A stretch of 10,195 bases of DNA from IMG/VR virus record IMGVR_UViG_2737471845_000013; one strand, given 5' to 3'. Made by a program: the position numbers and the translations under genes. The notes under the pieces were generated by a model. It made no database searches. It had not been told where the DNA came from and saw only the letters and a list, made by a program, of their open reading frames with translations. The first letter of the stretch is position 1; each line of letters starts with the position of its first letter. The DNA is from a virus (Duplodnaviria; Heunggongvirae; Uroviricota; Caudoviricetes). Of the stretch, positions 1-10,195 are shown in pieces.

Positions 1-2934
1 ATGGAGCGTCAGACTCAGGCCGCCCGGCAGACAACGCAGGCGGCTTCTTCGGCTGCAACAGCCGCATCCGTCCATGCGCAGACGGTGGAGAAGAACGCAC
101 AGGCTCATGAACGCATGGCCCGCGAGGTGGAGAAAACCCGCCAGCGCATGGAGGCGCTGAGCCAGAAAATGCGCGAGGAACAGGCGCAGGCCATGGCTCT
201 GGCGGAGGCTCAGGATAAAGCGGCTGCTGCGTTTTATCGTCAGATTGACAGTGTGAAACAGGCCAGTGCGGGACTGCAGGAATTACAGCGTATTCAGCAG
301 CAGATCCGACAGGCCAGAAACAGTGGCGGGATTGGTCAGCAGGATTATCTGGCGCTGATTTCTGAGGTTACGGCGAAAACCCGTGTTCTTACACAGGCTG
401 AGGAAGAGGCTACCCGACAGAAAGTGGCGTTTATCCGTCAGCTTAAAGAGCAGGCAACCCGCCAGAATCTTTCTTCTTCTGAGTTACTTCGTGCTAAGGC
501 TGCCCGGCTGGGGGTAAGCAGTGCTGCAGAAGTGTATATCCGCAAAATGGAGCAGGCAGGAAAAGCCACGCATTCGCTGGGGCTGAAAAGTGCAGCGGCC
601 CGCCAGGAGATAGGCGTTCTGATAGGTGAACTGGCCCGCGGCGATTTTGGGGCGCTGAGGGGATCCGGGATAACGCTGGCTAACCGTGCCGGATGGATAG
701 ACACACTGATGTCACCGAAAGGTATGATGCTTGGGGGAGTTATTGGCGGAATTGCCGCGGCTGTCTATGGTCTGGGTAAAGCCTGGTATGACGGTCAGAA
801 GGAGGGGGAAGAATTTAACCGCCAGCTGACGCTGACGGGGCATTATGCCGGAGTCACTGCCGGGCAGCTGTGGACGCTCAGTCGTGCTATTTCCGGGAAT
901 GGTATCACGCAACATGCTGCAGCCGGTGCGCTGGCACAGGTGGTGGGTAGTGGCGCATTTCGTGGAAACGATATCGGTATGGTGGCGAGAGCTGCCGCAC
1001 AGATGGAGCGATCGGTTGGCCAGTCGGTCAGCGATACCATAAATCAGTTTAAGCGGCTGAAGGATGATCCTGTAAATGCCGCGAAGGCTCTGGACAATGA
1101 GCTGCATTTTCTTACCGCCACTCAGCTCGAGCAGATACGTGTCCTTGGGGAACAGGGGCGGTCAAGTGATGCTGCCCGGATAGCCATGTCGGCACTGGCA
1201 GAGGAAACCGGCCGGCGTACATCGGATATTGATAATAACCTCAATGCGCTGGGAAGTACGCTACAGACACTGACCGACTGGTGGAATCTTTTCTGGGATG
1301 CGGCAATGAACATTGGCCGGGAGGATTCTCTTGATGCGCAGATTGCAGCACTGCAGGAAAAAATTCAGCGAGCAAAGAAATTTCCGTGGACGAACGCGTC
1401 CACCACGGTGGAATACGATCAGCAACAGCTGGATGAGCTGCAAGAGCGAAAGCGCCAGCAGGATTTGCAGGATGCAAAAGATCAGGCAGAGCGGAATTAT
1501 CAGGAGCAACAGAAACGCCGTAATGCTGAAAATGCTGCACTGAACCGGATGAATGAAACGGAAGCCGCACGACATCAGCGTGAAATTGCGCGTATTAATG
1601 CCATGCAGTACGCCGACCAGGCTGTCAGGGATGCGGCGATACAACGTGAAAATGAACGTCACGAGAAAGCCCTTGCGTCCGGCAAGAAAAAAACACGCGC
1701 CCCCCGTAATGATGAGGCCACCCGGTTATTGCTGCAGTACAGTCAGCAACAGGCACAGGTGGAAGGGCAGATTGCTGCTGCCAGACAATCAGCAGGCATT
1801 TCCACTGAAAAGATGACAGAAGCACATAAACAGCTTCTGGCTCTGCAGCAGCGCATCAGCGACCTGGACGGGAAAAAACTGACGGCAGATGAAAAGAGTG
1901 TTCTGGCCCGTAAAGATGAACTGATTCAGGCACTGACGCTGCTGGATGTAAAACAGCAGGAGCTTCAGAAACAGACGGCACTCAACGAGCTGAAGAAAAA
2001 AACAATTCAGCTGAGCAGTCAACTGGCTGAAGAAGAGCGCGCTCAGCGTCAGCAACATGACCTGGATATCGCCACGACAGGGATGGGGGATAAACAGCGT
2101 CAGCGATACCAGACACAGTTCAGTCTGCAACAAAAATATCAGCAGAAGCTGGAACAGCTGGAGCGTGACAGTAGGCAGAAAGGAACATTCGGCACGGATG
2201 AATACCGGAACGCAGAACAAACACTGACAGACAGTCTTAACCGACAACTGAACGAAAACAGACGCTACTGGCAGGAGCAGGAATTGATGCAGGCAGACTG
2301 GAAAAACGGTGCCATGCGGGCATTTCAGAATTTTACAGAGAATGCGGATAACACGGCGGGAACTGTGGAACAGCTGTTTACCTCTGCCTTCAGCGGTATG
2401 GGAAATAGTCTGGCAACCTTTGTGACTACCGGCAAGTTCAGCTTCAAGTCTTTTACTTCATCAGTGCTGTCAGATATGGCGAAAATTTTGGCGCAGGCAA
2501 CCATGATGAAGGCTGTCAAAGGGATTGGTAGTGCACTGGGGATGGGTTCTGTTCTCGGCAGCCTTTCCCTTAATGCTGATGGTGGTGTTTATCAGTCTGC
2601 CGATTTGAGTCGCTACAGTGGTTCTGTAGTTAACCGTCCGACGTTTTTTGCTTTTGCAAAAGGCGCGGGTGTGATGGGGGAAGCGGGGCCTGAAGCCATT
2701 CTGCCACTGCGTCGTGGTGCCGATGGTAAGCTGGGTGTTGTGGCGGATATTGGTGGTTCAGGTATCGCGATGTTTGCCCCGCAGTACAACATTGAGATCA
2801 ATAACGACGGCACGAACGGGCAGATAGGTCCGGCTGCCCTGAAGGTGGTTTATGACCTCGGGAAAAAAGCGGCAGCGGACTTTATGCAACAGCAGGCCCG
2901 TGATGGTGGTCAGTTAAGTGGAGCATATCGGTAA
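1..2934 (+). CDS. H: Phage tail tape measure protein (lambda gpH family); 5' end may be truncated by the window edge
   Basis: 977-aa ORF ending in TAA at 2932-2934. The C-terminal stretch (INNDGTNGQIGPAALKVVYDLGKK...RDGGQLSGAYR) closely matches the lambda gpH C-terminus as I recall it; the N-terminal part is a long Q/A/R/E-rich predicted coiled-coil typical of tape measure proteins. It sits directly upstream of M-L-K-I-J as in lambda. The ORF begins at base 1 with ATG, so whether this is the true start cannot be decided from the window. Confidence 0.9.
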   Translation: MERQTQAARQTTQAASSAATAASVHAQTVEKNAQAHERMAREVEKTRQRMEALSQKMREEQAQAMALAEAQDKAAAAFYRQIDSVKQASAGLQELQRIQQQIRQARNSGGIGQQDYLALISEVTAKTRVLTQAEEEATRQKVAFIRQLKEQATRQNLSSSELLRAKAARLGVSSAAEVYIRKMEQAGKATHSLGLKSAAARQEIGVLIGELARGDFGALRGSGITLANRAGWIDTLMSPKGMMLGGVIGGIAAAVYGLGKAWYDGQKEGEEFNRQLTLTGHYAGVTAGQLWTLSRAISGNGITQHAAAGALAQVVGSGAFRGNDIGMVARAAAQMERSVGQSVSDTINQFKRLKDDPVNAAKALDNELHFLTATQLEQIRVLGEQGRSSDAARIAMSALAEETGRRTSDIDNNLNALGSTLQTLTDWWNLFWDAAMNIGREDSLDAQIAALQEKIQRAKKFPWTNASTTVEYDQQQLDELQERKRQQDLQDAKDQAERNYQEQQKRRNAENAALNRMNETEAARHQREIARINAMQYADQAVRDAAIQRENERHEKALASGKKKTRAPRNDEATRLLLQYSQQQAQVEGQIAAARQSAGISTEKMTEAHKQLLALQQRISDLDGKKLTADEKSVLARKDELIQALTLLDVKQQELQKQTALNELKKKTIQLSSQLAEEERAQRQQHDLDIATTGMGDKQRQRYQTQFSLQQKYQQKLEQLERDSRQKGTFGTDEYRNAEQTLTDSLNRQLNENRRYWQEQELMQADWKNGAMRAFQNFTENADNTAGTVEQLFTSAFSGMGNSLATFVTTGKFSFKSFTSSVLSDMAKILAQATMMKAVKGIGSALGMGSVLGSLSLNADGGVYQSADLSRYSGSVVNRPTFFAFAKGAGVMGEAGPEAILPLRRGADGKLGVVADIGGSGIAMFAPQYNIEINNDGTNGQIGPAALKVVYDLGKKAAADFMQQQARDGGQLSGAYR

Positions 2935-3263
2935 TGGAGACGTTTCACTGGAAAGTACGTCCGGATATGAATGTCGTATCAGAGCCAAAGGTAGTGACAG
3001 TGAAGCTTGGCGATGGTTATGAACAACGTCGTGCGGCGGGGCTGAATAACCAGCTGTCGACTTACAGCGTGACGATACGTGTTCGTAAATGTGAACACCA
3101 GTCTTTAAAAGCCTTTCTGGAACAGCACGGTGGCGTCCGTGCATTTCAGTGGACGCCACCTTATGACTGGAAGCCGATCAGGGTGGTTTGTCGTAAATGG
3201 TCGGCAAGCGTAGGGGCGCTGTGGGTAACCATAACGGCAGATTTTGAACAGGTCGTGGCATAG
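2934..3263 (+). CDS. M: Tail tip protein M (lambda gpM family)
   Basis: 109 aa, the same length as lambda gpM; recognisable similarity along the whole protein (MxTFxWKVxP...GDGYxQR...TYSVT...FLExHGG...WTPPYxW...FEQVV). Its ATG (2934-2936) overlaps the H stop codon in a TAATG arrangement. Confidence 0.92.
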   Translation: METFHWKVRPDMNVVSEPKVVTVKLGDGYEQRRAAGLNNQLSTYSVTIRVRKCEHQSLKAFLEQHGGVRAFQWTPPYDWKPIRVVCRKWSASVGALWVTITADFEQVVA

Positions 3264-3272
3264 GAGACTCTG

Positions 3273-3971
3273 ATGCAGGACATACAGCAGGAAACACTGA
3301 ATGAATGCATCCGTGCGGAGCAGTCGGCCAGCGTGGTGCTCTGGGAAATCGACCTGACAGAGGTCGGTGGAGAACGTTATTTTTTCTGTAATGAGCAGAA
3401 CGAAAAAGGTGAGCCGGTCACCTGGCAGGGGCGTCAGTATCAGGCATACCCCATTCAGGGGACGGGATTTGAACTGAACGGCAAGGGCAGTACTGCCCGT
3501 CCGACACTGACGGTCTCTAACCTGTACGGTATGGTCACCGGTATGGTGGAGGATTTGCAGAGTCTGGTCGGCGGAACGGTGGTCCGGCGTAAGGTTTACG
3601 CCCGTTTTCTGGATGCGGTGAACTTCGTCAACGGAAACAGTGACGCCGATCCGGAGCAGGAGGTGATCAGCCGCTGGCGCATCGAGCAGTGCAGCGAACT
3701 GAGCGCGGTGAGTGCCTCTTTTGTACTGTCCACGCCGACGGAAACGGACGGCGCTGTTTTTCCGGGGCGTATCATGCTGGCCAACACCTGCACCTGGACC
3801 TATCGCGGTGATGAGTGCGGTTATCACGGTCCGGCAGTCGCGGATGAATATGACCAGCTGACGTCCGATATCACGAAGGATAAATGCAGCAAATGCCTGA
3901 GCGGCTGTAAGTTTCGCAATAACGTCGGCAACTTTGGCGGCTTCCTTTCCATTAACAAACTTTCGCAGTAA
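3273..3971 (+). CDS. L: Tail tip protein L (lambda gpL family), with a C-terminal cysteine cluster
   Basis: 232 aa, the same length as lambda gpL. AGGAG at 3262-3266 lies 6 nt upstream of the ATG. The C-terminal region carries clustered cysteines (CTWTYRGDECGY ... CSKCLSGC), consistent with the Fe-S cluster motif reported for gpL. Confidence 0.92.
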   Translation: MQDIQQETLNECIRAEQSASVVLWEIDLTEVGGERYFFCNEQNEKGEPVTWQGRQYQAYPIQGTGFELNGKGSTARPTLTVSNLYGMVTGMVEDLQSLVGGTVVRRKVYARFLDAVNFVNGNSDADPEQEVISRWRIEQCSELSAVSASFVLSTPTETDGAVFPGRIMLANTCTWTYRGDECGYHGPAVADEYDQLTSDITKDKCSKCLSGCKFRNNVGNFGGFLSINKLSQ

Positions 3972-3975
3972 ACCC

Positions 3976-4719
3976 ATGACAGAAACAGAATCAGCGATTC
4001 TGGCGCACGCCCGGCGATGTGCGCCAGCGGAGTCGTGCGGCTTCGTGGTGAGAGCGCCGGAGGGGGAAAGATATTTTCCCTGCATGAATATTTCCGGTGA
4101 GCCGGAGGGTTATTTCCGGATGTCGCCGGAAGACTGGCTGCAGGCAGAAATGCAGGGTGAGATTGTGGCACTGGTCCACAGCCACCCCGGTGGTCTGCCC
4201 TGGCTGAGTGAGGCCGACCGGCGGCTGCAGGTGCAGAGTGATTTGCCGTGGTGGCTGGTCTGCCGGGGGACGATTCATAAGTTCCGCTGTGTGCCGCATC
4301 TCACCGGGCGGCGCTTTGAGCACGGGGTGACGGACTGTTACACGCTGTTCCGGGACGCTTACCATCTGGCGGGAATTGAGATGCCGGACTTTCATCGTGA
4401 GGATGACTGGTGGCGTCACGGCCAGAATCTCTATCTGGATAATCTGGAGGCCACAGGGCTGTATCAGGTGCCGTTGTCCTCAGCACAACCGGGCGATGTG
4501 CTGCTGTGCTGCTTTGGTTCATCGGTGCCGAATCATGCCGCCATTTACTGTGGTGATGGCGAGCTGCTGCACCATATTCCTGAACAACTGAGCAAACGAG
4601 AGAGGTACACCGACAAATGGCAGCGACGCACACACTCCCTCTGGCGTCACCGGGCATGGCACGCATCTGCCTTTACGGGGATTTACAACGATTTGGCCGC
4701 CGCATCGACCTTCGGGTGA
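3976..4719 (+). CDS. K: Tail tip assembly protein K (lambda gpK family); JAB/MPN metalloprotease-like N-terminal domain plus NlpC/P60-like C-terminal domain
   Basis: The ORF is open from 3934, but the ATG at 3976 (5 nt after the L stop) gives the N-terminus MTETESAILAHARRCAPAESCGFVV, which matches the gpK family. A JAMM-like HSHPGG...S..D motif is encoded around 4177-4215, and an NlpC/P60-like Cys (DCY, Cys codon 4336-4338) and downstream His are present. The 3' end overlaps gene I by 103 nt in a different frame, as in lambda. The exact start is uncertain (alternative in-frame ATGs at 3934 and 4120). Confidence 0.85.
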   Translation: MTETESAILAHARRCAPAESCGFVVRAPEGERYFPCMNISGEPEGYFRMSPEDWLQAEMQGEIVALVHSHPGGLPWLSEADRRLQVQSDLPWWLVCRGTIHKFRCVPHLTGRRFEHGVTDCYTLFRDAYHLAGIEMPDFHREDDWWRHGQNLYLDNLEATGLYQVPLSSAQPGDVLLCCFGSSVPNHAAIYCGDGELLHHIPEQLSKRERYTDKWQRRTHSLWRHRAWHASAFTGIYNDLAAASTFG

Positions 4720-5258
4720 AAACGGGAGCCGAAGCCATCCGGGCTCTGGCCACACAGCTCCCGGCGTTTCGTCAGAAACTGAGCGACGGCTGGTATCAGA
4801 TACGGATTGCCGGGCGTGATACAGGTGAAAACGAATTATCAGCCCGTCTGAATGAGCCACTGGAAAATGGTGCCGTGATCCACATCGTACCGCGTCTGGC
4901 GGGTGCTAAAAGTGGCGGTATTTTTCAGGCAGTGCTGGGGGCGGCTGTTATGGCAGTTGCTATATGGATGCCAGGAGTAGGAATTATGGCGAGTAATCTG
5001 CTGTTTTCTCTCGGTGCCAGTATGACACTGGGTGGTGTTGCACAGATGCTGGCACCGAAAGCCAGAACTCCCCGAACACAGACAACGGATAACGGCAAAC
5101 AGAACACCTATTTTTCTTCACTGGATAACATGGTTGCCCAGGGCAATGTTCTGCCTGTTCTGTACGGTGAAATGCGCGTGGGGTCACGTGTGGTATCTCA
5201 GGAAATCAGCACGGCAGACGAAGGGGACGGTGGTCAGGTTGTGGTGATTGGTCGCTGA
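4617..5258 (+). CDS. I: Tail tip assembly protein I (lambda gpI family); ubiquitin-like N-terminal domain
   Basis: 213 aa. The N-terminus (MAATHTLPLASPGMARICLYGDLQRFGRRIDLRVKTGAEAIRALATQLPAFRQKLSDGWYQ) and C-terminus (TDNGKQNTYFSSLDNMVAQGNVLPVLYGEMRVGSRVVSQEISTADEGDGGQVVVIGR) are essentially the lambda gpI sequence as recalled; the central hydrophobic segment differs. The start lies inside the 3' end of K. Confidence 0.9.
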   Translation: MAATHTLPLASPGMARICLYGDLQRFGRRIDLRVKTGAEAIRALATQLPAFRQKLSDGWYQIRIAGRDTGENELSARLNEPLENGAVIHIVPRLAGAKSGGIFQAVLGAAVMAVAIWMPGVGIMASNLLFSLGASMTLGGVAQMLAPKARTPRTQTTDNGKQNTYFSSLDNMVAQGNVLPVLYGEMRVGSRVVSQEISTADEGDGGQVVVIGR

Positions 5259-5318
5259 GGCAAAATGTTTTATGTGAAACCGCCTCCGGGAGGTTTTGTC
5301 GTTTATGGAGCATGACGA

Positions 5319-8300
5319 ATGGGTAAAGGCAGCAGTAAGGGGCATACCCCGCGCGAAGCGAAGGACAACCTGAAATCCACGCAGTTGCTGAGTGTGATCG
5401 ATGCCATAAGTGAAGGGCCGGTTGAAGGTCCGGTGGATGGATTAAAAAGCGTGCTGCTGAACAGTACGCCGGTGCTGGACAGTGAGGGGAATACCAACAT
5501 ATCCGGTGTCACGGTGGTGTTCCGGGCAGGAGAGCAGGAGCAGACACCGCCGGAGGGATTTGAATCCTCCGGCTCCGAGACGGTGCTGGGTACGGAAGTG
5601 AAATACGACACGCCGATCACCCGGACCATCACGTCGGCAAACATTGACCGACTGCGTTTTACCTTCGGCGTGCAGGCACTGGTGGAAACCACCTCAAAGG
5701 GGGACAGGAATCCATCGGAAGTCCGCCTGCTGGTTCAGATACAACGTAACGGTGGCTGGGTGACGGAAAAAGACATCACCATTAAGGGTAAAACCACTTC
5801 ACAGTATCTGGCCTCGGTGGTGGTGGATAACCTGCCGCCGCGCCCGTTTAATATCCGGATGCGCAGGATGACGCCGGACAGCACCACAGACCAGCTGCAG
5901 AACAAAACGCTCTGGTCGTCATACACCGAAATCATCGATGTGAAACAGTGCTACCCGAACACGGCACTGGTTGGCGTGCAGGTGGACTCGGAGCAGTTTG
6001 GCAGTCAGCAGGTGAGCCGTAATTATCATCTTCGCGGGCGTATTCTGCAGGTGCCGTCGAATTATAACCCGCAGACGCGGCAATACAGCGGTATCTGGGA
6101 CGGAACGTTCAAGCCAGCGTACAGCGACAACATGGCCTGGTGTCTGTGGGATATGCTGACCCATCCGCGCTACGGCATGGGAAAACGTCTTGGTGCGGCA
6201 GATGTGGATAAATGGGCGCTGTATGTCATCGGCCAGTACTGCGACCAGTCGGTGCCGGACGGCTTTGGCAGCACGGAGCCGCGCATCACCTGTAATGCCT
6301 GGCTGACCACACAGCGTAAGGCCTGGGATGTGCTCAGTGATTTCTGCTCGGCGATGCGCTGTATGCCGGTATGGAACGGGCAGACGCTGACGTTCGTGCA
6401 GGACCGGCCGTCGGATAAGGCGTGGACCTATAACCGCAGTAATGTGGTGATGCCGGATGATGGCGCGCCGTTCCGCTACAGCTTCAGCGCCCTGAAGGAC
6501 CGCCATAATGCTGTTGAGGTGAACTGGATTGACCCGAACAACGGCTGGGAGACGGCGACGGAGCTGGTTGAAGATACGCAGGCCATTGCCCGTTACGGTC
6601 GTAATGTCACGAAGATGGATGCCTTTGGCTGTACCAGCCGGGGGCAGGCACACCGCGCCGGGCTGTGGCTGATTAAAACAGAACTGCTGGAAACGCAGAC
6701 CGTGGATTTCAGCGTCGGCGCAGAAGGGCTTCGCCATGTACCGGGCGATGTCATTGAAATCTGTGATGATGACTATGCCGGTATCAGCACCGGCGGGCGC
6801 GTGCTGGCGGTGAACAGCCAGACCCGGACGCTGACGCTCGACCGTGAAATCACGCTGCCATCCTCCGGTACCACGCTGATAAGCCTGGTTGACGGAAGTG
6901 GCAATCCGGTCAGCGTGGAGGTCCGGTCCGTCACCGACGGCGTGAAGATAAAAGTGAGCCGTGTTCCTGACGGTGTTGCTGAATACAGCGTATGGGGGCT
7001 GAAGCTGCCGACGCTGCGCCAGCGACTGTTCCGCTGCGTGAGTATCCGTGAGAACGACGACGGCACGTATGCCATCACCGCCGTGCAGCATGTGCCGGAA
7101 AAAGAGGCCATCGTGGATAACGGGGCGCACTTTGACGGCGACCAGAGTGGCACGGTGAACGGTGTCACGCCGCCAGCGGTGCAGCACCTGACCGCAGAAG
7201 TCACTGCAGACTGCGGGGAATATCAGGTGCTGGCGCGATGGGACACGCCGAAGGTGGTGAAGGGCGTGAACTTCCTGCTCCGTCTGACCGTAACAGCGGA
7301 CGACGGCAGTGAGCGGCTGGTCAGCACGGCCCGGACGACGGAAACCACATACCGCTTCACGCAACTGGCGCTGGGGCGTTACACGCTGACGGTCCGGGCG
7401 GTAAATGCGTGGGGACAGCAGGGCGATCCGGCATCGGTATCGTTCCGGATTGCCGCACCGGCAGCACCGTCGCGGATTGAGCTGACACCGGGGTATTTTC
7501 AGATAACCGCCACGCCGCATCTTGCGGTTTATGATCCGACGGTACAGTTTGAATTCTGGTTCTCGGAAAAGCGGATTGCGGATATCAGGCAGGTTGAAAC
7601 CAGCGCGCGCTATCTTGGCACGGGGATGTACTGGATAGCCGCCAGTATCAATATCAAACCGGGCCATGATTATTACTTTTATATCCGCAGTGTGAACACC
7701 GTTGGCAAATCGGCATTTGTGGAGGCCGTCGGTCGGGCGAGCGATGATGCGGAAGGTTATCTGAATTTTTATAAAGGGTTGATCAATAAAACGCATCTCG
7801 GCAAGGAACTGCTGGAAAACTTTGAGCTGACGGAAGATAACGCCAGCAAACTGGAGGAGTTTTCGAAAGAGTGGAAGGACGCCAACGATAAATGGAATGC
7901 CATGTGGGGCGTCAAAATTGAGCAGACCGAGGACGGCAAACATTATGTCGCGGGTATTGGCCTCAGCATGGAGGACACTGAGGAAGGCAAACTGAGCCAG
8001 TTTCTGGTTGCCGCCAATCGTATCGCGTTTATTGACCCGGCAAACGGGAATGAAACGCCGATGTTTGTGGCGCAGGGCAATCAGATATTCATGAACGACG
8101 TGTTCCTGAAGCGCCTGACGGCCCCCACCATTACCAGCGGTGGCAGTCCTCCGGCATTTTCCCTGACATCGGACGGAAAGCTGACCGCTAAAAATGCGGA
8201 TATCAGTGGCAGTGTGAATGCGAACTCAGGAACGCTCAACAATGTCACGATAAATGAGAACTGTACGATTAAGGGCATGCTGGAGGCGACCCAGGTCAGA

Positions 8301-8732
8301 GGGGATTTCGTTAAAGCTGTATCAAAAGCCTTCCCGAAAAAAGTCGGTACGTGGGGTAACACGGAAACACCAGACGGTACGGTTACAGTCACCATCAGCG
8401 ATGATCATAACTTTGACCGCCAGATTATTATTCCGCCCATTATTTTTAACGGTATAGCGTATGACGATCCGGGGAGCGGAAATAACCCAGGAGGCACGCG
8501 ATACACGGGTTATGGTTTTGAAGTTCGCAAAAACGGCGTATTAATCGCATCCAGAGAAACTAAAGGGGCCATTCCCGGTAGCTACAGTGCGGTTATTGAT
8601 ATGCCTAGTGGTGGTGGTAGCGTCACTCTGGAGTTTAAGATTTTCCAGAAAGGCAATCAGGGGGCAGGCAATATCACCGACTGTACGGTGATTGTGACCA
8701 AAAAAGCGGCTTCCGGCATCAGTATTCGTTGA
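5319..8732 (+). CDS. J: Host specificity protein J / central tail fibre (lambda gpJ family)
   Basis: 1137 aa (lambda gpJ is 1132 aa). GGAG at 5307-5310 lies 8 nt upstream of the ATG. The N-terminus ([34 protein letters not shown]) and most of the protein through the fibronectin-III-like repeats are recognisably gpJ. The last ~150 residues look diverged from my recollection of lambda J. Confidence 0.93.
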
Positions 8733-8754
8733 AATATTTATAACCCCAATAAAT

Positions 8755-8777
8755 GGCGTCAGGAATGACGCCTTTTT
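8755..8777 (+). terminator. Intrinsic (Rho-independent) terminator downstream of J
   Basis: Perfect 7-bp inverted repeat GGCGTCA (8755-8761) / TGACGCC (8766-8772) with a GGAA loop, followed by TTTTT (8773-8777); it begins 23 nt after the J stop. Confidence 0.7.
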
Positions 8778-8802
8778 GATTGCAGAAAAGCGAGAGGTAA
8801 TT

Positions 8803-9402
8803 ATGCGTAAAGTTTGTGCAGCCATTTTGTCCGCAGCCATTTGTCTGGCCGTATCCGGTGCGCCTGCATGGGCGTCTGAACATCAGTCCACGCTGAGCGC
8901 GGGGTATCTTCATGCCCGGACCAACGTTCCCGGCAGTGATGATCTGAACGGGATTAACGTGAAATATCGTTATGAGTTTACGGATACGCTGGGGCTGGTG
9001 ACGTCATTCAGCTATGCAGGAGACAAGAATCGCCAGCTGACCCGTTACAGCGATACCCGCTGGCATGAAGATTCCGTGCGTAACCGCTGGTTCAGCGTGA
9101 TGGCGGGGCCGTCTGTGCGCGTGAATGAATGGTTCAGCGCGTATGCGATGGCGGGTGTGGCTTACAGCCGTGTGTCGACTTTCTCCGGGGATTATCTTCG
9201 CGTAACTGACAACAAGGGGAAAACGCACGATGTACTGACCGGAAGTGATGACGGTCGCCACAGCAACACGTCTCTGGCGTGGGGAGCTGGCGTGCAGTTT
9301 AACCCGACCGAATCCGTGGCCATTGATATTGCTTATGAAGGCTCCGGCAGTGGCGACTGGCGCTCTGACGGTTTCATCGTGGGTGTCGGTTATAAGTTCT
9401 GA
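8803..9402 (+). CDS. lom: Lom outer membrane protein (Ail/Lom/OmpX-family beta-barrel), a prophage moron
   Basis: GAGAGG at 8792-8797 lies 5 nt upstream of the ATG at 8803 (the ORF track's 8776 start is a TTG inside the terminator T-run). The N-terminus is a typical signal peptide (MRKVCAAILSAAICLAVSGAPAWA/SEHQ). The body and C-terminus (INVKYRYE...SVMAGP...SAYAMAGVA...AWGAGVQFNP...IDIAYEGSGSGDWRSDGFIVGVGYKF) match lambda Lom and end in the aromatic residue typical of outer-membrane beta-barrels. Confidence 0.93.
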   Translation: MRKVCAAILSAAICLAVSGAPAWASEHQSTLSAGYLHARTNVPGSDDLNGINVKYRYEFTDTLGLVTSFSYAGDKNRQLTRYSDTRWHEDSVRNRWFSVMAGPSVRVNEWFSAYAMAGVAYSRVSTFSGDYLRVTDNKGKTHDVLTGSDDGRHSNTSLAWGAGVQFNPTESVAIDIAYEGSGSGDWRSDGFIVGVGYKF

Positions 9403-9428
9403 TTAGCCAGGTAACACAGTGTTATGAC

Positions 9429-9455
9429 AGCCCGCCGGTTCAGGCGGGCTTTTTT
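9429..9455 (+). terminator. Intrinsic (Rho-independent) terminator downstream of lom
   Basis: GC-rich 7-bp stem GCCCGCC (9430-9436) / GGCGGGC (9443-9449) with a 6-nt loop (GGTTCA), followed by TTTTTT (9450-9455). Confidence 0.75.
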
Positions 9456-9466
9456 GTGGGGTGAAT

Positions 9467-10195
9467 ATGGCAGTAAAGATTTCAGGTGTACTGAAAGACG
9501 GCACAGGAAAACCAGTACAGAACTGCACAATCCAGCTGAAAGCAAAACGTAACAGCACCACGGTGGTGGTGAACACGCTGGCCTCAGAAAATCCGGATGA
9601 AGCCGGGCGTTACAGCATGGACGTTGAGTACGGTCAGTACAGCGTTATTCTGTTGGTGGAAGGATTCCCGCCGTCACATGCCGGGACCATCACCGTGTAT
9701 GAAGATTCCCAATCCGGTACGCTGAATGATTTTCTCGGTGCCATGACGGAGGATGATGCCCGTCCTGAGGCACTGCGCCGTTTTGAACTGATGGTGGAAG
9801 AGGTGGCGCGTAACGCGTCCGCGGTGGCACAGAACACGGCAGCCGCGAAGAAGTCAGCCAGCGATGCCAGCACATCAGCCCGTGAGGCGGCAACCCATGC
9901 GACTGATGCTGCAGGCTCAGCACGCGCAGCCAGCACGTCAGCTGAACAGGCCGCGTCGTCGGCTCAGTCAGCGTCTTCCAGCGCAGGAACGGCATCAACA
10001 AAGGCCACTGAAGCGGAAAAAAGTGCTGCCGCTGCAGAGTCCTCAAAAAGCGCGGCGGCCACCAGTGCCGCTGCGGCGAAAACGTCAGAAACGAATGCCG
10101 CAGCGTCACAACAATCAGCCGCCACTTCTGCATCCACCGCGACCACGAAAGCGTCAGAAGCTGTCACCTCAGCCAGGGATGCGTCGGCTTCAAAA
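9467..10195 (+). CDS. stf: Side tail fibre protein Stf, N-terminal part (3'-partial; continues beyond the window)
   Basis: ATG at 9467 opens a frame with no stop through base 10195 (243 codons; absent from the ORF track, presumably because it lacks a stop). The translation (MAVKISGVLKDGTGKPVQNCTIQLKAKRNSTTVVVNT...GRYSMDVEYGQYSVIL...FPPSHAGTITVYEDSQ...) closely matches the lambda Stf N-terminus as recalled, followed by the characteristic Ala/Ser/Thr-rich repeat region. Confidence 0.9.
   Translation, partial: MAVKISGVLKDGTGKPVQNCTIQLKAKRNSTTVVVNTLASENPDEAGRYSMDVEYGQYSVILLVEGFPPSHAGTITVYEDSQSGTLNDFLGAMTEDDARPEALRRFELMVEEVARNASAVAQNTAAAKKSASDASTSAREAATHATDAAGSARAASTSAEQAASSAQSASSSAGTASTKATEAEKSAAAAESSKSAAATSAAAAKTSETNAAASQQSAATSASTATTKASEAVTSARDASASK

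Follow-up and report, generated by a model that had tools for sequence, protein, structure and literature searches.

The last ~168 residues of the tip attachment protein J encoded in the window, by which we mean the whole 10,195-bp stretch of DNA analyzed here, are a 434-type module, which we read, with a probability of roughly 85%, as a domain that would bind OmpC and thereby trigger DNA ejection. The diverged end of J is the classical h434 module and not a new sequence, and earlier publications describe both the exchange of the J specificity region as a module and the use of OmpC by the 434 type. The window itself is a draft contig with both ends inside prophage tail genes; by exact protein match it is the whole of JUDN01000011.1 in draft assembly GCA_000798515.1, and because it is one complete contig, these ends are assembly breaks. 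Its open reading frames and Pfam matches describe a lambdoid tail module on the + strand, in which the order H-M-L-K-I-J-lom-stf is colinear with that of lambda and 434:

1-2934, + strand: H, tape measure, 977 aa.
2934-3263, + strand: M, minor tail protein (Pfam Phage_min_tail).
3273-3971, + strand: L, minor tail protein (Pfam Phage_tail_L).
3976-4719, + strand: K, with JAB and NlpC-P60 domains (Pfam).
4617-5258, + strand: I, tail assembly protein (Pfam Lambda_tail_I).
5319-8732, + strand: J, tip attachment protein or central tail fibre, 1137 aa, an uninterrupted ORF.
8803-9402, + strand: lom, an Ail/Lom outer-membrane protein of 199 aa, 434-type allele (Pfam Ail_Lom, E = 1e-121).
9467-10195, + strand: side tail fibre gene, 5′ part only, continuing beyond the window end.

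The J of the window is a lambda-like tip attachment protein gpJ, as established by its position in the tail module and by a Pfam series that runs, in order, FNIII-A_GpJ, Phage-tail_3, Ig_J, Ig_J_second, Phage_Tail_Tip and Ig_GpJ_C, with all matches above the curated cutoffs. We aligned it with the corresponding regions of lambda (NC_001416), phage 434 (OL657226) and the hybrid lambda h434 imm21 (OM418627), and three parts of the gene are needed for what follows:

5319-8227, + strand: the part of J conserved in both lambda and 434, aa 1-969, with the hub domains, the FNIII/Ig domains, the helical shaft and the beta-prism fibre.
8228-8732, + strand: 434-type specificity region of J, aa 970-1137, with dense mismatches to lambda from 8228.
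8319-8726, + strand: Ig-like receptor-binding domain, aa 1001-1136 (Pfam PF12421, Ig_GpJ_C; E = 7.6e-25; score 88 bits, cutoff 26.2).

The initial annotation had described the body of J as almost identical to lambda and its C-terminus as diverged. The first description holds as near-identity, since 934 of 969 residues (96.4%) match lambda gpJ over aa 1-969 in the protein alignment, but it is not complete identity: the body differs from lambda by 35 substitutions, and at aa 801-850 identity drops locally to 41/50. Identity to 434 over the same residues is 938/969. At the DNA level, most 100-base bins in 5319-8227 are 93-100% identical to lambda, with lower values of 86-90% at 5619-5718 and 7719-7918, and the full-length gene is 95-96% identical to the J genes of lambda h434 and phage 434. 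The divergence of the C-terminus is borne out. Over aa 978-1137, only 62/166 positions (37%) are identical to lambda, far under the >90% identity in the last 150 residues that would have marked an end of lambda type, whereas 156/160 (97.5%) are identical to 434 J and 155/160 (96.9%) to lambda h434 J, both of which have the same length over this region with zero indels. For aa 1001-1137 the corresponding values are 48/143 for lambda and 134/137 for 434. The contrast between body and C-terminus in identity to lambda is extreme (Fisher's exact p = 7e-72).

The transition between the two parts is abrupt. There are 0 mismatches to lambda from 8170 to 8227 and dense mismatches from 8228, which corresponds to aa 970, so that the proposed start at 8250 was essentially right but ~20 bases late. 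In the bin 8219-8318 the window-lambda and 434-lambda identities both collapse, but the window remains 97-100% identical to 434. The position of the junction, aa 970, also agrees with the start of the region, residues 960-1132, that Maddamsetti et al. 2018 (PMC6646904) named the "specificity region," whose phylogeny is decoupled from that of the rest of J and which those authors treat as an independently circulating and recombining module. They found natural lineages to be marked by indels at four sites in J (lambda residues 1012, 1048-49, 1077-78 and 1107); in our protein alignment, the indels between the window and lambda fall close to these sites, near lambda residues ~1011, 1043-49, 1078 and 1099-1114.

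The sequences available for comparison place the window in a well-separated class. A megablast search with DNA from 8250 to 8732 matched 434 and h434 at 98.1-98.3% identity and several Stx-converting and other lambdoid phages at up to 99.2%; lambda was not among the matches for this segment. When aa 978-1137 were searched by tblastn against phage records, 74 matches were at least 90% identical, 0 fell between 60 and 90%, and 169 were below 60%, lambda among them at 37.6%. Because this distribution is bimodal, with an empty 60-90% band, J C-termini are discrete exchangeable classes as judged by sequence identity, and the window belongs to that of 434: it is at least 90% identical to 434 across the specificity region, without indels, and shares the junction of phage 434 itself. 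It does not belong with the LamB-binding module of lambda, from which it is set apart by the 37% identity over aa 978-1137 and by indels at the four loop sites.

The exchanged block is larger than the J domain. The initial annotation had ended the diverged feature at 8732, the end of J, but the lambda-divergent DNA continues past the stop codon to ~9275:

8228-9275, + strand: whole lambda-divergent, 434-like block, comprising the J specificity region, a terminator and the first ~157 lom codons.
8755-8777, + strand: intrinsic-terminator-like hairpin and T-run in the J-lom gap, GGCGTCAGGAATGACGCC followed by TTTTT, with the hairpin at 8755-8772.

Binned at 200 bases, the block shows 44-67% identity with lambda and 92-98% with 434. 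The blastn HSPs with lambda stop at 8288 and restart at 9275; that with 434 runs unbroken from 2796 to 9888. A terminator is annotated in phage 434 where the window has the hairpin, and the window terminator resembles that of 434 in sequence and not that of lambda. Likewise, the identity of the Lom protein is 96.5% with its 434 counterpart and 44% with that of lambda. The exchanged unit is thus the J domain together with the terminator and about three-quarters of lom, not the J domain alone.

The family assignment and the predicted structure both describe the diverged end as a gpJ receptor-binding domain. Pfam labels Ig_GpJ_C [quoted passage not shown] An AlphaFold2 model of J aa 930-1137 has a mean pLDDT of 80, with 84-96 in the domain core, and the structure prediction that the initial annotation had proposed as a check returned gpJ fibres in both LamB-bound and OmpC-bound forms. 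The best four Foldseek matches in the PDB (E = 5e-18 to 1e-15) are the closed form of the gpJ chimera A8 (9wca), closed lambda (8xck), open lambda with LamB (8xcj), and open A8 with OmpC (9wcb). The domain proper (aa 985-1137) is 98% identical to 434, 40% to A8 and 35% to lambda.

What receptor such a domain would recognize is suggested by genetics on the 434 protein. The J C-terminus is reported to determine receptor specificity, and replacement of lambda J by the 434 gene to shift the phage from LamB to OmpC (PMC3509688, PMC11101478, PMC12502783); this evidence reaches us through review articles and structural studies, in which Fuerst & Bingham 1978 and Schwartz 1980 are cited. The proposal that the mosaic C-terminus confers a different receptor and host range gains support, at the level of sequence, from the 97.5% identity to 434 J together with this literature. 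OmpC is most likely the receptor of the exact allele in the window, given its near-identity to 434 J. The classical h434 hybrid also brings in 434 DNA beyond J, including lom and stf, and for this reason the OmpC phenotype is credited to the J C-terminus alone on the strength of the cited literature.

A mechanism can be proposed by analogy with lambda, in which the trimeric receptor-binding domain puts four loops into LamB, and binding causes the bottoms of the domains to spread, the beta-prism fibre to twist, the helical shaft to flip, and the tail tip to open (PMC11101478). For the phage of the window, homologous recombination would have joined a 434-type module onto a J body common to lambda and 434. 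The Ig-like receptor-binding domain would then trimerize at the fibre tip, and, in view of the near-identity to 434 J, its variable loops would most likely engage OmpC, a trimeric porin, in place of LamB. Docking would lead to rearrangement of the fibre and hub and to opening of the tail, as in lambda with LamB. The same trigger is probable after OmpC docking because J upstream of aa 970 is conserved, and the ejection step probably applies to this allele as judged from its near-identity to 434 and the shared architecture.

Within the 434 class, the window differs from 434 at four positions in the last 160 residues: E980 (Q in 434), I1108 (V), Q1110 (H) and G1115 (R in 434, W in h434). Three of the four cluster at or beside the loop that aligns with lambda D1107, and they form a linked variant:

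8640-8663, + strand: linked micro-allele I1108/Q1110/G1115, with DNA mismatches to 434 at 8640, 8648 and 8661.

The corresponding residues are V/H/R in phage 434 and V/H/W in lambda h434. In the AlphaFold2 model, residues 1108 and 1110 end a strand (171-182 in model numbering) and residue 1115 lies in the following loop (183-187); in the class alignment, residue 1115 falls beside lambda A1106/D1107, and D1107 is one of two positions that lambda needs to gain OmpF use (PMC6646904). This placement raises the possibility that, although the module is of the 434 class, the micro-allele alters recognition, so that the domain uses another subset of OmpC variants or an added or replacement porin such as OmpF. 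The three linked residues divide the class in two, with I/Q/G in 13 of 21 aligned class sequences (the window included) and V/H with R or W in the other 8 (434 and h434 included), and the residue at 1115, which may be G, R or W, is in the predicted loop. Small changes in J are known to matter in related phages, in which one to four substitutions can add a new porin receptor (PMC11336670, PMC6646904). Phage 21 gains OmpC use by a single J mutation (PMC11336670), and the engineered OmpC-binding gpJ chimeras A8 and 1A2 accept different OmpC variants (PMC11338833). Set against this are the 98% identity of the receptor-binding domain proper to 434, the fact that 434 (R1115) and h434 (W1115) already differ at residue 1115 yet are both described as OmpC phages, and the fact that I/Q/G, as the commoner form among the aligned database sequences, is not unusual. 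We therefore consider altered recognition by this allele improbable. More speculatively, the micro-allele may act in nature as a switch by which the 434-type domain is adjusted to certain OmpC variants or to a further porin. We regard this as doubtful, but if it is true, two allele groups inside a very common class would differ in host range.

Recognition of OmpC in the manner of 434 remains the preferred reading when the domain is compared with that of lambda. Continued use of LamB by a merely diverged C-terminus, with host range unchanged, would be compatible with a fold and domain family held in common with the LamB-binding domain of lambda and with the class alignment, in which the framework strands and the motifs DDHxFDRQ, NG and DMPxGxG are kept relative to lambda. 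However, the domain is only 35-37% identical to that of lambda, there are indels at all four of the loop positions that define lineages, and the receptor reported for the proteins of 434 and h434, which are nearly identical to that of the window here, is OmpC and not LamB. On the basis of the low identity, the loop indels and the reported receptor of the 434 protein, we rejected continued LamB use as very unlikely. That the junction is an assembly artefact, in which a short-read contig fused two lambdoid prophages within a shared repeat, was rejected as having a negligible chance: the window is a whole draft contig that ends in prophage tail genes in the manner typical of a repeat-induced break, and E. 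coli genomes carry a median of 3 and a maximum of 15 places that match it, but the J ORF is intact, finished genomes of 434, lambda h434, mEp460 and other phages show the same architecture of a lambda-like J body with a 434-type end at 1137 aa, phage 434 itself starts to depart from lambda within the same 100-base bin as the window, and 1775 complete E. coli genomes have one place that covers at least 80% of the window.

The 434-type end is widespread. Of 5426 complete E. coli genomes, 2113 carry the segment 8250-8732, with DNA identities of 80-99.4%, and 98 carry the C-terminal segment of lambda itself, in each case at least 99% identical. The five top-ranked lambda-type genome matches are laboratory strains, three of them DE3 lysogens. 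Protein matches to the 434 class from a search of a large protein database came also from Escherichia albertii and Shigella sonnei; because these matches are mainly fragments at contig ends, they were used for variation within the class and for the structure-prediction alignment, and not as a census. Among complete E. coli genomes the 434-type end is thus about twenty times more frequent than the LamB type, and lambda is the unusual one. For the prophage represented here, the correct annotation of the tip is 434/OmpC type and not lambda/LamB, which would predict the strains that the phage, or a particle derived from it, can enter. Beyond correct annotation the importance of the assignment is small.

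The closest known systems are phage 434 and lambda h434, the J proteins of which have the same length as that of the window (1137 aa) and the same junction with a lambda-like body; in phage 434 the downstream terminator and lom allele are also of the type found in the window. Phage 434 differs in that DNA identity over the remainder of J is only ~95%, in the type of the upstream tape-measure gene, which is unrelated, and in the side tail fibre, where divergence sets in after 9888. Lambda gpJ, for which structures with and without LamB are available (PDB 8xcj, 8xck, 8iyk), has the same Ig_GpJ_C domain and fold as the window (Foldseek E ~1e-17) and the same upstream fibre, hence presumably the same trigger mechanism. 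It differs in the receptor-binding domain, at 35-37% identity with loop indels, and in the receptor, which for the 434 class is reported to be OmpC and not LamB. The central tail fibres of the EHEC siphophage phi330 and of Salmonella Gifsy-1, for which OmpC use has been shown experimentally (PMC12502783; PMC12312913), resemble that of the window, by their published description, in combining a conserved lambda-like body with a swapped C-terminal domain. The domains of phi330, 434 and lambda have only 35-40% pairwise identity (PMC12502783), and the C-terminal region of Gifsy-1 J is ~18% identical to that of lambda (PMC12312913). The A8 chimera, in which a natural gpJ C-terminus was grafted onto lambda J and which uses OmpC (engineered in PMC11338833), is the best match to the window in the PDB by both sequence and structure (9wca, and 9wcb with OmpC of E. 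coli EDL933). Because A8 has been captured bound to OmpC, the Ig_GpJ_C fold can dock on this porin. A8 nevertheless belongs to a different sequence class, 40% identical to the window in the receptor-binding domain and with other loop lengths. Since A8 and 434 are in different classes, OmpC use appears in at least two distinct classes of J C-termini.

The lom gene lies next to the J end, and in the window its allele is inherited together with the J specificity region. The features considered here, all on the plus strand of the window, are as follows.

8803-9402, chiefly 8803-9275, plus strand: lom allele co-inherited with the J specificity region
7700-7930, plus strand: milder second diverged patch of J, at about residues 795-870
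2801-3400, plus strand: mosaic patch, gene M
4801-5000, plus strand: mosaic patch inside gene I
9467-10195, plus strand: first part of the gene for the side tail fibre, inside which the contig ends
1-2934, plus strand: tape-measure gene H, encoding 977 residues (853 in lambda H)

The Lom protein of the window shares 96.5% identity with that of phage 434 but 44% with its lambda counterpart; homology to lambda picks up again only at 9275, within lom itself. Among 5426 complete E. coli genomes, the 434-type J C-terminus was present in 2113; lambda's own LamB-type J C-terminus was rare (98 genomes), with every match at least 99% identical and the highest-ranked matches belonging to laboratory and DE3 strains.

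The second patch of J differs from both comparison phages, with 86-89% DNA identity to lambda and to 434 alike and 41 of 50 residues identical to each across J residues 801-850; in a search of phage records, the best identity to this patch was at most 91.7%, with none above. The patch overlaps lambda residues 841-861, a part of the alpha-helical shaft of gpJ that refolds upon receptor binding (PMC11101478). Mosaicism also extends upstream of J, where the M protein is only 56% identical to that of lambda and DNA identity falls to about 52% over 200 bases within I. Elsewhere in I, as in L and K, identity is 89-98%.

Downstream, the N-terminus of the side tail fibre is 434-like to about 9888 and diverges beyond, with identity to 434 dropping to 56% and then 21% in 200-base bins; identity to lambda is kept at 82-87% up to about 10000. 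The part of this gene in the window precedes its receptor-binding end, which falls outside because the contig stops within the gene.

At the other end of the module, H has no DNA-level homology to H of either lambda or 434 in a DNA comparison with both phages, and its protein is only 26% identical to lambda H. Because tape-measure clades have been linked to dependence on the ManYZ inner-membrane route (PMC13190303), the phage of the window may differ from lambda at the ManYZ step as well. Rather than the H of lambda or 434, the tape measure of the window resembles an mEp460-type module.
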